Part shown: positions 50,823 through 58,248 of the stretch, piece after piece | Position numbering within the stretch: the stretch's first letter is position 1 | Layout of the letters: the number at the start of each line of letters is the position of its first letter | IMG/VR virus record: IMGVR_UViG_3300032334_001433 | Coordinates: 64,001-128,000 of that record | Source: a virus | Taxonomy: Duplodnaviria; Caudoviricetes | Direction: 5' to 3' (one strand) | Length of the DNA: 64,000 nucleotides | Program-made: the position numbers and the translations under genes | Notes under the pieces: model-generated | What the model saw: only the letters and a program-made list of their open reading frames with translations | What the model was told of the DNA's origin: nothing | Database searches by the model: none

Positions 50823-51378
50823 GGAAAAGAAACCTTCGGTTACTGCACATTATGTAAATAATAAAGAATTTTTAGATGCATTAATAGCATATAAGGAACA
50901 AGTTGATGCTGCTAAAGAACGAGGCGAAGAACCGCCCGTTGTAACTAGATACATCGGCGAATGTTTTATAAAAATTGCTACACACCTTTCATACAAATCT
51001 AATTTTATTAATTATACCTTTAAAGATGATATGATCTCGGATGGTATTGAAAATTGTCTAACTGCAGTACAAAAATTTGATCCAACTAAATCTTCAAATC
51101 CATTTGCATATTATACTCAAATTATTTACTTTGCTTTTATTCGTAGAATACAAAAGGAAAAGAAACAACAGGCCACTAAGTATAAAATGATTGAGAATAT
51201 GGATATTGATTCTTTAATCTTGCAAGATCATGACAACGGCGAATTCAGCCACCAATTTTTGGATTACTTAAAACGGCAAATGGATAACATTGATATTGAG
51301 AAACGTAACATCACTATCCCGAAAAAGGTTAAAAAAGTTGAAATAGATTCGGATAATCCTCTTGACATGGATGACTGA
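50755..51378 (+). CDS. gp55: gp55 late sigma factor (start may be 50767)
   Basis: HYVNNKEFL, FINYTFKDDMISDGIENC and NPFAYYTQIIYFAFIRRI motifs. Confidence 0.95.
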   Translation: MKAQMKNTITDIADFEEEKLFIKEKKPSVTAHYVNNKEFLDALIAYKEQVDAAKERGEEPPVVTRYIGECFIKIATHLSYKSNFINYTFKDDMISDGIENCLTAVQKFDPTKSSNPFAYYTQIIYFAFIRRIQKEKKQQATKYKMIENMDIDSLILQDHDNGEFSHQFLDYLKRQMDNIDIEKRNITIPKKVKKVEIDSDNPLDMDD

Positions 51379-51391
51379 TTTACTATATAAT
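51362..51391 (+). promoter_or_regulatory. Sigma70-type promoter for queE-folE cluster
   Basis: TTGACA (51362-51367), 18 nt, TATAAT (51386-51391). Confidence 0.7.
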
Positions 51392-51419
51392 ATATGTTAA
51401 TTTAATTATTGGAGTCTTG

Positions 51420-52277
51420 ATGGCAAAACTTAAAGTTGCAGAATTGTTTTATAGTATTCAAGGTGAAGGCCGTTATATGGGCGTACCTAGTGTGTTTCTT
51501 CGCACATTCGGTTGTAACTTTACCTGCAGTGGTTTTGGTATGCCTAAAGGGGAGTTTAGTCATGAAGTTGATTATATCGCGGCTGACGTACATAAGTTTC
51601 TTACCTATAAAGATTTACCTCTTGTTAGTACAGGGTGCGATTCTTACGCTAGCTGGGATCCTCGTTTTAAGCATCTCAGCCCTGTACTTGATACTGATAA
51701 CATTGCCGATTCAATTATGGATATACTTCCGTACAAGAAATGGGAAGACGAACATCTTGTAATTACAGGCGGCGAACCATTGCTTGGATGGCAAAGATCG
51801 TATCCAGATCTTCTAAACAATGAGAAGATGAAATCTTTAAAAGATATTACGTTTGAAACAAATGGTACTCAAACATTGTCATCCGAATTTAGACAGTATC
51901 TTCTTAATTGGTCTCTTGGTCGTAAAGACAGAGGATATAATGCACTAACATTTTCTGTTAGTCCAAAATTAAGTGTCAGTGGAGAAAAATGGGAAGAAGC
52001 AATCTGTCCAGATATTGTTGCATCATATCAAGACGTTGGATATACTTATCTTAAATTTGTAGTTGCAACTGAAGAAGATGCAGAAGAAGCAATGACTGCT
52101 ATTGATCTATATAAATCTGCAGGATTTAAAGGTCCTGTTTATTTGATGCCAGTAGGTGGTGTCGAAAGTGTTTATGCTATGAACAATCGAAAGGTTGCAG
52201 AAATGGCAATGAAGAACGGTCTTCGATATAGCGATCGTTTACAAGTGCCCTTATTTAAAAACGAATGGGGAACATAA
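51420..52277 (+). CDS. queE: 7-carboxy-7-deazaguanine synthase QueE (radical SAM)
   Basis: ELFYSIQGEG, FLRTFGCNFTC, VITGGEP, FETNGT, SVSPKL and RLQV motifs. Confidence 0.92.
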   Translation: MAKLKVAELFYSIQGEGRYMGVPSVFLRTFGCNFTCSGFGMPKGEFSHEVDYIAADVHKFLTYKDLPLVSTGCDSYASWDPRFKHLSPVLDTDNIADSIMDILPYKKWEDEHLVITGGEPLLGWQRSYPDLLNNEKMKSLKDITFETNGTQTLSSEFRQYLLNWSLGRKDRGYNALTFSVSPKLSVSGEKWEEAICPDIVASYQDVGYTYLKFVVATEEDAEEAMTAIDLYKSAGFKGPVYLMPVGGVESVYAMNNRKVAEMAMKNGLRYSDRLQVPLFKNEWGT

Positions 52278-52341
52278 ATAATAATGTTACACAAAGGTAA
52301 CAAAATTTTCAATCATCATATCCGTGTAAGGAAGGATTCAA

Positions 52342-53031
52342 ATGTCATATAACAAGACAAAAACAGACCCAGAATTGGGGCAAAAAGTTCATCAGCATTT
52401 AGTTGCAATGGGAGTCGAGACTCCTACCCGATTAGATCCTACTACCCGATTAGATCTTGATCGTAAAACAAAGATTGAAATAATCGAGTCTCACTTTTCG
52501 GAAATTATGCGAGTGTTGGGCCTTGATTTAGAAGATGATAGTTTAATTGAAACACCAAAGCGTGTTGCTAAGATGTATGTTAACGAAATCTTTTGGGGGT
52601 TGGATTATGACGCATTTCCAAAATGTACTACAGTTAACAATAAGATGAAATACAACGAAATGGTTGTTGAACGCAATGTCAATGTCCAAAGTAATTGCGA
52701 ACATCATTTTGTAGTCATTGATGGATTGGCAACAGTTGCGTATGTTCCAAAGGATAAAGTTCTTGGACTAAGTAAAATTAATCGTATTGTAGAATACTTC
52801 AGTAAGCGTCCTCAGATTCAAGAACGTCTAACAGAACAAATTTATTATGCGTTGCAGTTTATTTTGGAAACAGATAATGTTGCAGTTATGATTGATGCTC
52901 AGCATTATTGTGTTAAGAGCCGAGGCGTAGAAGATACAGGCAGTTCTACCGTTACAAGTAAGCTAGGTGGAGGATTTAAAACAGATCCCTCTCTTAGAAA
53001 TGAATTCTTAAGCATCGCCCGTTCAAAATGA
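52342..53031 (+). CDS. folE: GTP cyclohydrolase I
   Basis: [34 protein letters not shown] and HYCVKSRG motifs. Confidence 0.96.
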
Positions 53032-53537
53032 CTATAAACGTAATGGTTGATTTGGAGACAATGTCAACAAGATCAAATGCGGCAATTTGTTCCATTGGTG
53101 CAGTAAAATTTGAAGGGGATAAAATACTGGATACGTTTTACTGCACTATTGATATAAAGTCATGCAAAGAAGCAGGCCTGCATATTGCCAAGGATACTGT
53201 TGAATGGTGGTCAAAGCAAAACAAAGAAGCATTCCGAGAGTTAACAAAAAACAACATCTCACTACAAGAAGCACTAGACAAATTCGAAATTTGGTTTGGT
53301 CCAAAGAGTCTTCCTTTGTGGGGCAATGGTGCAGTATTTGATAATACTATTCTTGGAAATGCTTATTTCAATACAGGCAGAAAACCACCATGGCATCCAT
53401 GGGATGACCGATGCTATAGAACTGTTAAAGCATTATTTAAATGGATTCCTGCTGATGAACGGCAAGGAACATATCACAATGCATTGGATGACGCAATGCA
53501 TCAAACAAAACACTTAATTAAAATCTTGGGTAATTGA
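53028..53537 (+). CDS. DEDDh 3'-5' exonuclease
   Basis: [19 protein letters not shown] and HNALDDA motifs. Confidence 0.85.
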
Positions 53538-56625: not shown

Positions 56626-57691
56626 AATTTTTATTGTAGATTTAGAATCGGTAGATACGCGATACACAGGACAATGGAAACGATATGTACCCAAATTACT
56701 TAAAAAGGAATGTCATGACATCGAAGTTATATGTGGGCCTGCTGATATTCCTAGTGCCACTACTCCTGGCGCCTTTCTTAATTTTGGTGGCACTAATATC
56801 TATAAGTCTGCACAAGTTGAGCAAATGGGCCGTTTATTTGTTAGTGGATCCGTTAATGCTAATGATCATTTTTTATTTACTGACGCTTGGCATCCTGGCA
56901 TTATTAACTTAAAATATATGAGTGAATTGTTGCAGATCCCTGTAACGATTCACGCACTATGGCATGCCGGCAGTTATGACCCTCAAGATTTTTTAGGTCG
57001 CCTTATCGGAGATGCTCAGTGGGTTAGACACGCCGAGCAAAGTTTCTTTCACGCTATTGACCATAACTATTTTGCTACAAATTTTCATATTGATTTGTTT
57101 GCTGATACATTTAGCGAAACAGTAGATGATGAGTGGAAATTAACTATGATTGAGCAAGGTAAGATTGTTCGTTCAGGTTGGCCAATGGAATATATGGTTG
57201 ATACATTAGATAATTATAATACTACAAAACAAGATATTATTTTATTCCCGCATCGTATTGCTCCTGAGAAACAAGTTGAAATTTTTAGAGATCTTGCAAA
57301 GCAATTGCCTCAATATGAATTTATTGTTTGTCAAGATAAACAATTGACTAAACATGAATATCATGAGTTATTGGGTAGAGCTAAAATTGTGTTCAGTGCT
57401 AACTTGCAGGAAACACTAGGCATTAGTTGCTACGAAGGCGCATTAGTTGATGCTATTCCTATGGTGCCAAATCGTTTGTCTTATAGTGAAATGTATAATG
57501 ATATATTCAAATATCCAAGTGAGTGGACAGAATCATTTGAAGCATACGAATTACATCGACAAGATTTATGCTACAAAATTATTCAATACATGAATAATCA
57601 CGATCAATATAAGTATCAAGTTCGTAAACAAGCATCAGACTTAACGGAAAAATTCTTTTCTGCTAATGTATTGACATCAATGTTTAAGTAA
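56618..57691 (+). CDS. Second GT-B glycosyltransferase
   Basis: FPHRIAPEKQ and ETLGISCYE (E-x7-E) motifs. Confidence 0.75.
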   Translation: MSKIFIVDLESVDTRYTGQWKRYVPKLLKKECHDIEVICGPADIPSATTPGAFLNFGGTNIYKSAQVEQMGRLFVSGSVNANDHFLFTDAWHPGIINLKYMSELLQIPVTIHALWHAGSYDPQDFLGRLIGDAQWVRHAEQSFFHAIDHNYFATNFHIDLFADTFSETVDDEWKLTMIEQGKIVRSGWPMEYMVDTLDNYNTTKQDIILFPHRIAPEKQVEIFRDLAKQLPQYEFIVCQDKQLTKHEYHELLGRAKIVFSANLQETLGISCYEGALVDAIPMVPNRLSYSEMYNDIFKYPSEWTESFEAYELHRQDLCYKIIQYMNNHDQYKYQVRKQASDLTEKFFSANVLTSMFK

Positions 57692-57699
57692 TATATAAT
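57671..57699 (+). promoter_or_regulatory. Sigma70-type promoter for queD
   Basis: TTGACA (57671-57676), 17 nt, TATAAT (57694-57699). Confidence 0.8.
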
Positions 57700-57705
57700 A
57701 CATCA

Positions 57706-57767
57706 CATAGCGGTCTATCGGCATCGTCCCGCTTTATAAATTCCGCCGCCTATGATTAACATAGGAG
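57706..57767 (+). promoter_or_regulatory. Candidate preQ1-I-like riboswitch in queD 5' UTR
   Basis: H-type pseudoknot AGCGG/CCGCT plus CGGC/GCCG with an A/U-rich L3; RBS-sequestering hairpin CCTATG/CATAGG. Confidence 0.5.
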
Positions 57768-57774
57768 AATAACC

Positions 57775-58248
57775 ATGGCAAAATACATTTCTACAAAAAC
57801 TTATAACCAGATTGGTCCCGTAGCATATAGACAATGGCGTGCAGATAGTCATTGTAATTTGATTCACGGATATGCACTCTCATTCCATTTAGAATTTGAA
57901 TGTGATACATTAGATGCTCGCAATTGGTGCATGGACTTCGGTGGATTAAAACCTCTTAAAGGTCTACTTGAGGATTGGTTTGACCACACATTATTAGTTG
58001 CTCAAGATGATCCAATGCGAGAGCATCTATTACATCTAGGCACATTAAAATTAGCAAAGATTACAGAAGTTGAAAAGACTGGATGTGAAGGTATTGCTGA
58101 TTTTCTTTATGAATATATTAACACAATTTTCTTACCCAACTATGGCGAAAAAGATCGTGTTTGGTGTTGCAAAGTACAAGTACGAGAAACAGATGCTAAC
58201 ATGGCAATGCGTGTTGGACATAGAGAAGATAACGAATTTAAAGATTGA
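57775..58248 (+). CDS. queD: 6-carboxy-5,6,7,8-tetrahydropterin synthase QueD
   Basis: HCNLIHGY, DFGGLK, FDHTLL and GCEGIA motifs. Confidence 0.9.
   Translation: MAKYISTKTYNQIGPVAYRQWRADSHCNLIHGYALSFHLEFECDTLDARNWCMDFGGLKPLKGLLEDWFDHTLLVAQDDPMREHLLHLGTLKLAKITEVEKTGCEGIADFLYEYINTIFLPNYGEKDRVWCCKVQVRETDANMAMRVGHREDNEFKD

Follow-up and report, generated by a model that had tools for sequence, protein, structure and literature searches.

The DNA analyzed here is a window of 64,000 nucleotides, bases 64001-128000 of the IMG/VR virus record IMGVR_UViG_3300032334_001433, which is complete at 202,665 bp with direct terminal repeats. PHROG matches to a major head protein, a tail tube protein, UvsY, a UvsW-like helicase, gp55 and gp47/gp46 mark it as a T4-like myovirus. 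The interval from gp55 to gp47 is filled by eight + strand genes that very probably constitute an operon for DNA modification with 7-deazaguanine, of the type that carries DpdL and lacks QueC. Two of the eight encode predicted glycosyltransferases, GT_A and GT_B, and the synteny of GT_B with DpdL and of GT_A with DpdA in related phages is the main new result of our analysis. The genes of the interval, with its two boundaries, are as follows:

50755-51378: gp55, late sigma factor (PHROG)
51420-52277, + strand: QueE-like radical-SAM 7-carboxy-7-deazaguanine (CDG) synthase (phrog_2076, E 5e-54)
52342-53031, + strand: FolE, GTP cyclohydrolase I (PF01227, E 1.7e-62; NF006824, 324.7 bits against a cut-off of 202)
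53028-53537, + strand: DEDDh 3'-5' exonuclease, Rv2179c-like (PF16473, E 5e-46; phrog_255)
53539-54906, + strand: GT_A, 455 aa, predicted GT-B fold, GT4-like (AlphaFold2 model, Foldseek, EX7E motif)
54903-56189, + strand: DpdA-like protein of the DpdA2 lineage, 428 aa (tblastn; TIGR00430, E 6e-5; ESM-Atlas)
56182-56625, + strand: DpdL, QueD paralog, 147 aa (LxxxHRHxF motif; phrog_17812, E 1e-30)
56618-57691, + strand: GT_B, 357 aa, predicted GT-B fold, GT4-like (AlphaFold2 model, Foldseek, EX7E motif)
57775-58248, + strand: QueD-like 6-carboxytetrahydropterin synthase, CxxxHGY variant (PF01242, E 3e-15; phrog_2389, E 1e-40)
58245-59306: gp47 (SbcD; gp46 is SbcC) (PHROG)

Apart from two gaps, of 64 nt and 83 nt, each gene abuts the next or overlaps it by 4-8 nt. 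An original prediction for this window had described such a mostly abutting or overlapping cluster, and all eight genes lie where it placed them. Its proposed first base, 51362, is however not the start of a gene but the first base of a promoter (P1, below); the start codon of QueE is the ATG at 51420, which is preceded by GGAG.

Genes of the deazaguanine pathway

By established family function, FolE would convert GTP to dihydroneopterin triphosphate (H2NTP), QueD would convert H2NTP to 6-carboxytetrahydropterin (CPH4), and QueE would form CDG from CPH4. DpdL is proposed in the literature to decarboxylate CDG to 7-deazaguanine (DG), and the DpdA protein, which is predicted to have the fold of tRNA-guanine transglycosylase (TGT), would by its homology to a validated DpdA2 exchange guanine in phage DNA for the deazaguanine after replication. 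This is the route that had been proposed for the cluster, running without QueC, and the identities of the genes support it. FolE, QueD and QueE are encoded together, as expected of the CDG pathway of Dpd-type systems, and DpdL occurs alongside these three and DpdA in a genome without QueC, which is the context expected of DpdL.

The individual assignments differ in the kind of evidence behind them. QueE matches the radical-SAM family PF04055 weakly and the QueE models of NCBIfam at E 1e-10 to 1e-15, below their cut-offs, and shares 70% identity with the QueE of IMG/VR relatives. QueD is the sole PTPS-family match in the complete genome and carries C-x3-H-G-Y in place of CxxxHGH; as the same motif is present in the QueD of Cellulophaga phage phiST, Acidovorax phage ACP17 and Synechococcus phage BUCT-ZZ01, it represents a phage variant and not a defect. 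In DpdL the sequence L-A-D-P-H-R-H-I-F fits exactly the motif LxxxHRHxF, which defines DpdL as against the CxxxHGH of its paralog QueD (PMC10516641). The likely start of the protein is the ATG at 56200, and its identity amounts to 34% with DpdL of phiST and 49-59% with those of PA5oct, ACP17, Phosso and X1. Across 12 DpdL sequences, phiST included, the motif is kept as LxxxH[R/F]HxF, and the invariant positions of the alignment are H, H, H, E, S-C-E and E. The role of DpdL as a CDG decarboxylase yielding DG is a proposal, and heterologous tests of it failed (PMC10516641).

DpdA has no Pfam match. In tblastn against a collection of 50,697 phage records, which is also the phage collection referred to below, it matched BUCT-ZZ01 (37.5% identity), ACP17 (33%), Stenotrophomonas Menderavirus-type phages, Xanthomonas phages X1 and BUDD, and Vibrio schizotequatroviruses including VH7D (33% identity, E 2e-51), its similarity to proteins of the DpdA2 lineage spanning E 1e-51 to 1e-88. 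In a Schizotequatrovirus congener of VH7D the gene matched is TGT-like and stands beside FolE, QueF and QueC. The DpdA2 of VH7D has been validated experimentally and inserts preQ1, preQ0 and, weakly, CDG into DNA (PMC10516641). No Cellulophaga or Campylobacter phage, the carriers of DpdA3, was matched in the collection at E 1e-5, and the ESM-Atlas features of DpdA score 0.95 to TGT-bearing viral clusters. Because VH7D DpdA2 is the nearest validated relative and no DpdA3 phage was matched, the window DpdA is, to judge from tblastn kinship, DpdA2-like and not DpdA3, which supplies the subfamily assignment that the original prediction had called for. Searches of DpdA, DpdL, QueD, GT_A and GT_B against PDB sequences with phmmer returned nothing usable.

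The absence of queC, queF and gat-queC, noted earlier for the window, extends to the complete genome: there is no match to QueC (PF06508) in its 202,665 bp, and the QueF model (PF14489) finds only a sub-threshold cross-match inside FolE. The complete genome likewise contains no phosphoribosyltransferase (PRTase), no second PTPS, no ThyA-family enzyme of the kind that makes hydroxymethyl-pyrimidines (PF00303) and no 2-oxoglutarate (2OG) oxygenase (PF13640). As all of these are missing, the gene content indicates that the pathway ends at CDG or DG and that a DNA glycosyltransferase would find no evident acceptor among the pyrimidines.

Glycosyltransferases and their synteny with DpdL and DpdA

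Profile searches gave only weak glycosyltransferase matches. The Pfam GT1 model (Glycos_transf_1) reaches 16.6 bits on GT_A (E 0.006), short of its 26.4-bit cut-off, and GT_B has no Pfam match. AlphaFold2 models built with alignments of metagenomic homologs were of high quality (pLDDT 89.3 and pTM 0.88 for GT_A, pLDDT 94.8 and pTM 0.92 for GT_B). In Foldseek searches of the PDB both models matched hundreds of GT-B enzymes at probability 1.00, with retaining enzymes of the GT4 type in the lead: MshA, sucrose-phosphate synthase and PimA for GT_A (E 3e-13 to 1e-10), and BshA, glycogen synthase, the GT4 enzyme BA1558 and MshA for GT_B (E 5e-11 to 1e-8). Both also carry the EX7E pair, formed in GT_A by E291 and E299, which are invariant in the homolog alignment, and in GT_B by the invariant E273 and the nearly invariant E265 (at least 90% conserved); R213 and K218 of GT_B are nearly invariant as well. 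On the basis of predicted fold and motif, Pfam alone being insufficient, we are confident in assigning both proteins as GT-B-fold, GT4-like glycosyltransferases. The GT-B calls made previously are thus borne out by structure prediction, not by Pfam.

There is only a remote relationship between the two enzymes, and GT_A extends at its C-terminus into an additional, highly conserved and basic domain of about 80 residues (approximately 376-455). Over 8000 metagenomic protein clusters belong to the GT_B family, which is represented in hundreds of IMG/VR contigs, and the ESM-Atlas clusters nearest to GT_B are 95-100% viral. In both families the conservation of the N-terminal, acceptor-side domain is close to that of the donor-side domain. 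The phages that carry these enzymes infect Pseudomonas, Acidovorax, Xanthomonas, Burkholderia, Sinorhizobium and cyanobacteria, and conservation of the acceptor domain across such different hosts argues for an acceptor that is independent of the host. A predicted complex of GT_B with DpdL, computed without controls, scored 0.00, a value that speaks neither for binding nor against it.

At the nucleotide level, megablast found no counterpart of the cluster in the phage collection. Comparison at the level of the individual proteins revealed a close association of each glycosyltransferase with a deazaguanine gene. Among 80 IMG/VR loci with a GT_B of 67-76% identity, DpdL lies immediately upstream of GT_B in 75, the contigs of the other five starting at most about 350 bp from the glycosyltransferase gene, and QueE and FolE come next in most. 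The association persists in distant members of the family, as GT_B homologs of 28% and 31% identity (loci L175 and L177) have DpdL directly upstream (hhalign probability 99.5%). The IMG/VR contigs of the set of 80 carry no DpdA2-type enzyme and have instead a 515-aa homolog of PA5oct EST35_0316. This protein belongs to a viral family of 515-540 aa, found upstream of DpdL-GT_B in jumbo-type phages (L018:5271-6818; PA5oct EST35_0316, L003:6382-8004), that has no Pfam match and is TGT/DpdA-like by its ESM-Atlas features (0.93) and by its model (TM 0.81 over a TGT-like target); the family may represent a DpdA subfamily that has yet to be classified.

A similar picture emerges for GT_A. In 80 IMG/VR loci with a GT_A of 47-99% identity, DpdA directly follows GT_A in 69 and the DEDDh exonuclease occupies the same position as in the window in 59. 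The gene order is QueE-(PRTase)-FolE-Exo-GT_A-DpdA-DpdL-GT_B'-X-QueD-gp47-gp46, where X in these cousins of the window phage is an NAD-dependent epimerase/dehydratase of nucleoside diphosphate (NDP)-sugars (PF01370, E 1e-50) and GT_B' is a glycosyltransferase that barely passes the Pfam GT1 threshold (26.8 bits in the cousins, 26.5 bits in BUCT-ZZ01). A homolog of the exonuclease follows GT_B' in BUCT-ZZ01, and in phiST a DEDDh exonuclease adjoins QueD.

In seven independent lineages of cultured phages, GT_B adjoins DpdL or is separated from it by no more than about 3 kb. The order is DpdA-GT_B-DpdL in ACP17, GT_B-DpdA-DpdL in Xanthomonas phages X1 and BUDD, and GT_A-DpdA-DpdL-GT_B' in BUCT-ZZ01; the DpdL-GT_B pair is also present in the PA5oct group (11 jumbo phages) and in Sinorhizobium phage Phosso, and GT_B lies about 3 kb from DpdL in Burkholderia phage BCSR5. 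Within the phage collection DpdL occurs in 28 records and a strong GT_B match in 18, all 18 being among the 28, so that no strong GT_B was seen without DpdL in the 50,697 records; five weaker, partial glycosyltransferase matches fall in genomes of other Xanthomonas phages and of Erwinia phages that have no DpdL. The reverse situation, DpdL without GT_B, is found in phiST and its kin, Rhizobium phage RHph_I1_18, Vibrio phage Bakedbeans and Aeromonas phage Ahp1. A GT_B that occurs only with DpdL, and a DpdL that sometimes occurs without GT_B, fit an optional additional step that uses the product of DpdL, and from these patterns we conclude that the glycosyltransferases are likely to be an add-on to the pathway that places DG in DNA as its deoxynucleoside (dDG).

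Further evidence comes from the window GT_B itself, which is 74% identical to the GT_B of jumbo-type phages and only about 23% identical to the GT_B' of the cousins (L096-L165), whereas DpdL, DpdA, GT_A and QueD of the window are cousin-like. The window has no counterpart of the NDP-sugar epimerase encoded after GT_B' in the cousins. It appears from this comparison that GT_B of the window lineage was replaced horizontally, and the insertion of a different glycosyltransferase of the same family into the slot after DpdL argues for a function and not an accident.

Taken as a whole, this comparative genomics strongly supports the view that GT_A and GT_B belong to the deazaguanine system, which we regard as probable. 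The association of glycosyltransferase, DpdA and DpdL, which had been put forward as the feature to look for in relatives, was found as strong synteny across phage lineages.

The surroundings of the DpdL-glycosyltransferase pair vary among relatives. Genes for GFO/IDH/MocA and zinc alcohol dehydrogenase oxidoreductases, a cupin, a type-I phosphoribosyltransferase and a 2OG-Fe(II) oxygenase occur there (L018:7069-16929; L096:8282-8719; BUCT-ZZ01 L001:3748-4209), with NUDIX and ATP-grasp genes in one contig. None of these extra enzymes is present in the window genome; in the relatives they suggest more elaborate products or a route at the nucleotide level. In two of the phages that have DpdL without GT_B, DpdL has other partners: in gp176 of Bakedbeans (L009:5233-6384) DpdL is joined to the C-terminus of a domain of about 255 aa without a Pfam match, and a macro-domain (Appr-1-p processing) protein follows DpdL in RHph_I1_18.

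Promoters and neighboring genes

Three perfect sigma-70-type promoter sequences lie in the cluster:

51362-51391, + strand: P1, TTGACA-18-TATAAT, upstream of queE
54784-54812, + strand: P2, within the 3' end of GT_A and upstream of dpdA
57671-57699, + strand: P3, upstream of queD

The window contains six perfect TTGACA-N16-18-TATAAT sites (2377, 6854, 50098, 51362, 54784 and 57671) against an expectation of 0.16, all on the + strand, and these are probably strong early promoters of the phage. Because of its perfect sigma-70-type promoters, the operon looks like an early transcription unit read by the host polymerase, as would be expected of DNA-modification genes. A riboswitch in the queD leader was considered and is unsupported, as an Rfam scan of 50500-59500 found no riboswitch, preQ1 classes included, and the folding of the leader (57700-57774; -15.7 kcal/mol, z -0.74) is no better than that of shuffled sequences. 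A hairpin in this leader overlaps the GGAG ribosome-binding site.

Directly downstream of gp46 are a peptide deformylase gene (61018-61593, phrog_2890) and a large peptidase-like gene (62035-63999, phrog_459). In Rhizobium phage RHph_I1_18 a peptide deformylase likewise follows the gp47/46 homologs.

Starting one base past the end of the window is a sugar island of about 17 kb (128001-146000 of the record). It encodes an AAA_5 ATPase, a GDP-mannose 4,6-dehydratase (E 1.7e-151), a GT10 fucosyltransferase, DegT and class I/II aminotransferases, a split thiamine pyrophosphate enzyme, three or four epimerase/dehydratases of the short-chain dehydrogenase/reductase family, a PfkB kinase, a zinc alcohol dehydrogenase, an E1/transketolase-like protein, an FkbM methyltransferase and a GT2 enzyme. 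The island may be the source of donor sugars for GT_A and GT_B, or it may be an independent glycan system.

Known systems and the nature of the product

Several characterized systems share parts of this arrangement. The dDG system of phiST is, like that of the window, QueC-less, and it has FolE, QueD with CxxxHGY, QueE, DpdL with LxxxHRHxF, a TGT-fold DNA transglycosylase and a nearby DEDDh exonuclease. It differs in having neither GT_A nor GT_B, in using DpdA3 where the window has a DpdA2-like enzyme, and in the MazG-like pyrophosphatase and P-loop protein next to its DpdL. The product in phiST has been measured as plain dDG (Cui et al. 2023, PMC10516641), and by analogy with this phage, which has DpdL and no glycosyltransferase, the glycosyltransferase-bearing phages would be expected to carry something beyond dDG. 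The DpdA2 systems of VH7D and phi-Grn1, which yield dPreQ1 and mdPreQ1, are also T4-like and include the validated DpdA closest to that of the window (33% identity), but they have QueC, QueF and DpdM, and lack DpdL and the glycosyltransferases (PMC10516641).

The T-even system of glucosylated hydroxymethylcytosine (gp42, alpha-GT and beta-GT) resembles the window operon in combining a base-modifying enzyme with two GT-B glycosyltransferases among early DNA-metabolism genes, and the window operon occupies the gp55-gp47 slot in which T4 has its DNA alpha-glucosyltransferase gene, a-gt, a suggestive parallel. The two differ in that GT_A and GT_B show no sequence similarity to T4 alpha-GT, the window genome has no hydroxymethylase, and the presumed acceptor in the window phage is a purine analog. 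A chemical counterpart is provided by the huimycin and dapiramicin pathways, where FolE, QueD and QueE are likewise combined with a GT4-family glycosyltransferase that adds a sugar to 7-deazaguanine. The huimycin enzyme HuiG, a GT4-type enzyme, glycosylates the free base at the 2-amino group, N2, and dapiramicin carries a disaccharide at the 2-amino position (PMC7439116; bioRxiv 10.64898/2026.04.15.718813). These are secondary metabolites of actinomycetes built on the free base, which need QueC (for preQ0) and an O-methyltransferase and involve neither DpdA nor DpdL; the window genome, without QueC and with DpdA, does not correspond to them, and what is shared is the idea of a GT4 enzyme acting on 7-deazaguanine.

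Two cultured phages with the DpdL-GT_B module are of particular relevance. Pseudomonas jumbo phage PA5oct has GT_B (46% identity), DpdL (49%), QueE and a TGT-fold protein; unlike the window phage it lacks GT_A and has as its transglycosylase a different TGT-like protein, of 540 aa, with a PRTase-like gene nearby. PA5oct DNA, which contains a modified G of unknown chemistry, withstands cutting at a number of G-containing restriction sites and is a target of nucleases that recognize hypermodified DNA (PMC12191111). No dDG was obtained in E. coli from the DpdL and DpdA of ACP17 alone, and the authors of that work suggest that other enzymes may be needed (PMC10516641). The modified G of PA5oct, the ACP17 failure and the precedent of HuiG all fit a sugar-decorated deazaguanine, which would explain why ACP17 DpdL and DpdA alone did not reconstitute the modification.

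It is plausible, then, that GT_A and GT_B transfer sugar from nucleotide-sugar donors to the deazaguanine, most likely after its insertion into DNA, as their predicted fold, motif and linkage suggest. We tentatively favor a glycosylated 7-deazaguanine in DNA as the best reading of the end product. Two enzymes could produce a mono- or a disaccharide, by analogy to T-even glucosyl-hydroxymethylcytosine, and the sugar-bearing base could shield the DNA against restriction enzymes and deazaguanine-specific defenses. Candidate acceptor atoms are C7, N2 and O6, the product possibly being a C-glycoside at C7. The original prediction had offered the carboxyl group of CDG as an example of an acceptor; this is unlikely, as GT_B is never found without DpdL, which presumably removes that group. 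Its proposal that the glycosyltransferases may decorate a 7-deazaguanine, or another base, with sugar is supported in part: their membership in the system stands, and the placement of the sugar on the base or in DNA is a hypothesis.

A number of points weigh against a sugar on 7-deazaguanine in DNA. DG has no hydroxyl group and the genome encodes no oxygenase or hydroxymethylase to make one, so that direct C-, N- or O6-glycosylation would be needed, for which we know of no precedent in DNA. The GT4-like enzymes closest in fold work on small molecules or glycans and not on DNA, hhalign against T4 alpha-GT gives probabilities of 9% (GT_A) and 1% (GT_B), and GT_B is acidic (pI 5.4); isoelectric point proved to be no marker of DNA glycosyltransferases, as T4 alpha-GT is also acidic and the measure gives no separation. 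The decarboxylase activity of DpdL is itself a literature proposal, and the DpdA2 enzymes studied modify well under 1% of G (PMC10516641). The sugar island, with its GT10 and GT2 enzymes, also means that the phage glycosylates other targets too.

A serious rival, which likewise counts against sugar in DNA, is that the glycosyltransferases act on a soluble molecule (free DG or CDG, or a pterin intermediate) to give a protected or activated precursor, a sink for by-products or a separate metabolite, or that they work on nucleosides or nucleotides and so leave plain dDG in the DNA; we consider this unlikely. It would suit the top fold matches to the small-molecule GT4 enzymes BshA and MshA, with a tetrahydrobiopterin glucosyltransferase further down, the acidity of GT_B, and the PRTase and NUDIX genes beside the pair in relatives, which hint at chemistry at the nucleotide level. 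It would also suit the tie of GT_B to DpdL, a base-level enzyme, which is tighter than that to any DpdA type, and the activity of the huimycin glycosyltransferase on free 7-deazaguanine (PMC7439116). However, from what is known of the TGT family, a sugar at N2 or N9 would be expected to keep the base out of a TGT-type exchange pocket, GT_A is linked to DpdA, which works at the level of DNA, and a soluble glycoside offers the phage no evident benefit. In the particular form of a pterin-glycoside pathway, combining FolE, a PTPS-like enzyme and a glycosyltransferase resembling tetrahydrobiopterin glucosyltransferase (BGluT), this explanation was set aside: DpdL lacks the catalytic Cys of PTPS/QueD (PMC10516641), the cluster has no sepiapterin reductase, and among the fold matches the BGluT structure comes no higher than ranks 28 and 46.

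It is also conceivable, if rather improbable, that the glycosyltransferases are unconnected with deazaguanine and glycosylate the host envelope, the virion or other proteins, having settled in the gp55-gp47 interval as a plastic part of T4-like genomes. The JGI label of their homologs, "glycosyltransferase involved in cell wall biosynthesis," the presence of other glycosyltransferases in the 17-kb sugar island and the content of the T4 gp55-gp47 interval, where assorted small genes and a homing endonuclease are found, could all be read in this way. Yet the adjacency to DpdL and DpdA recurs in T4-like, jumbo and other phages and holds down to 28% identity of the glycosyltransferase, GT_B is never found apart from DpdL, and in an enzyme for host glycans the acceptor domain would diverge over such a range of hosts. 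More improbable still is modification of DNA elsewhere, on another base or on the backbone, perhaps with the deazaguanine as a mere recognition mark. DG has no obvious acceptor group and the characterized DNA glycosyltransferases, those of T4 among them, act on hydroxymethyl-pyrimidines, but the complete genome has no ThyA-family hydroxymethylase and no 2OG oxygenase, and such a role leaves the strict dependence on DpdL unexplained.

A sugar-bearing 7-deazaguanine in DNA would be new. To our knowledge, all eight known 7-deazaguanine modifications of DNA carry small groups at C7, none of them with a sugar, and the glycosylation of DNA described to date is confined to hydroxymethyl-pyrimidines and base J. 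In agreement with the statement that accompanied the original prediction, the literature we searched contains no description of a glycosylated 7-deazaguanine in DNA. Outside DNA there is precedent for the chemistry in huimycin and dapiramicin, free-base natural products that are glycosylated 7-deazaguanines (PMC7439116). As the module is present in cultured phages (PA5oct/Paride, ACP17, X1, BCSR5, BUCT-ZZ01 and Phosso), the question can be put to a direct test.

The embedding of two glycosyltransferases in a deazaguanine operon, across hundreds of related phages, suggests from gene content an undescribed sugar-decorated guanine substitute. With slightly less assurance than for the end product itself, we propose that these phages, from T4-like phages of fresh or marine waters to PA5oct-type jumbo phages, ACP17, X1, BCSR5 and Phosso, may replace or supplement G with a sugar-bearing 7-deazaguanine by means of the DpdL-GT_B module, a second sugar being added by GT_A. 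Even if the DNA were to contain plain dDG, the obligatory pairing of the glycosyltransferase with DpdL would suggest that the present scheme of dDG biosynthesis lacks a step. If the proposal is true, this would be the first glycosylated purine analog in any DNA, and the conserved, virus-only glycosyltransferase family syntenic with DpdL would represent a new branch of DNA hypermodification, with a bearing on restriction, CRISPR and glycosylase-based defenses, on nanopore and other sequencing artifacts, and on enzymes for DNA labeling.

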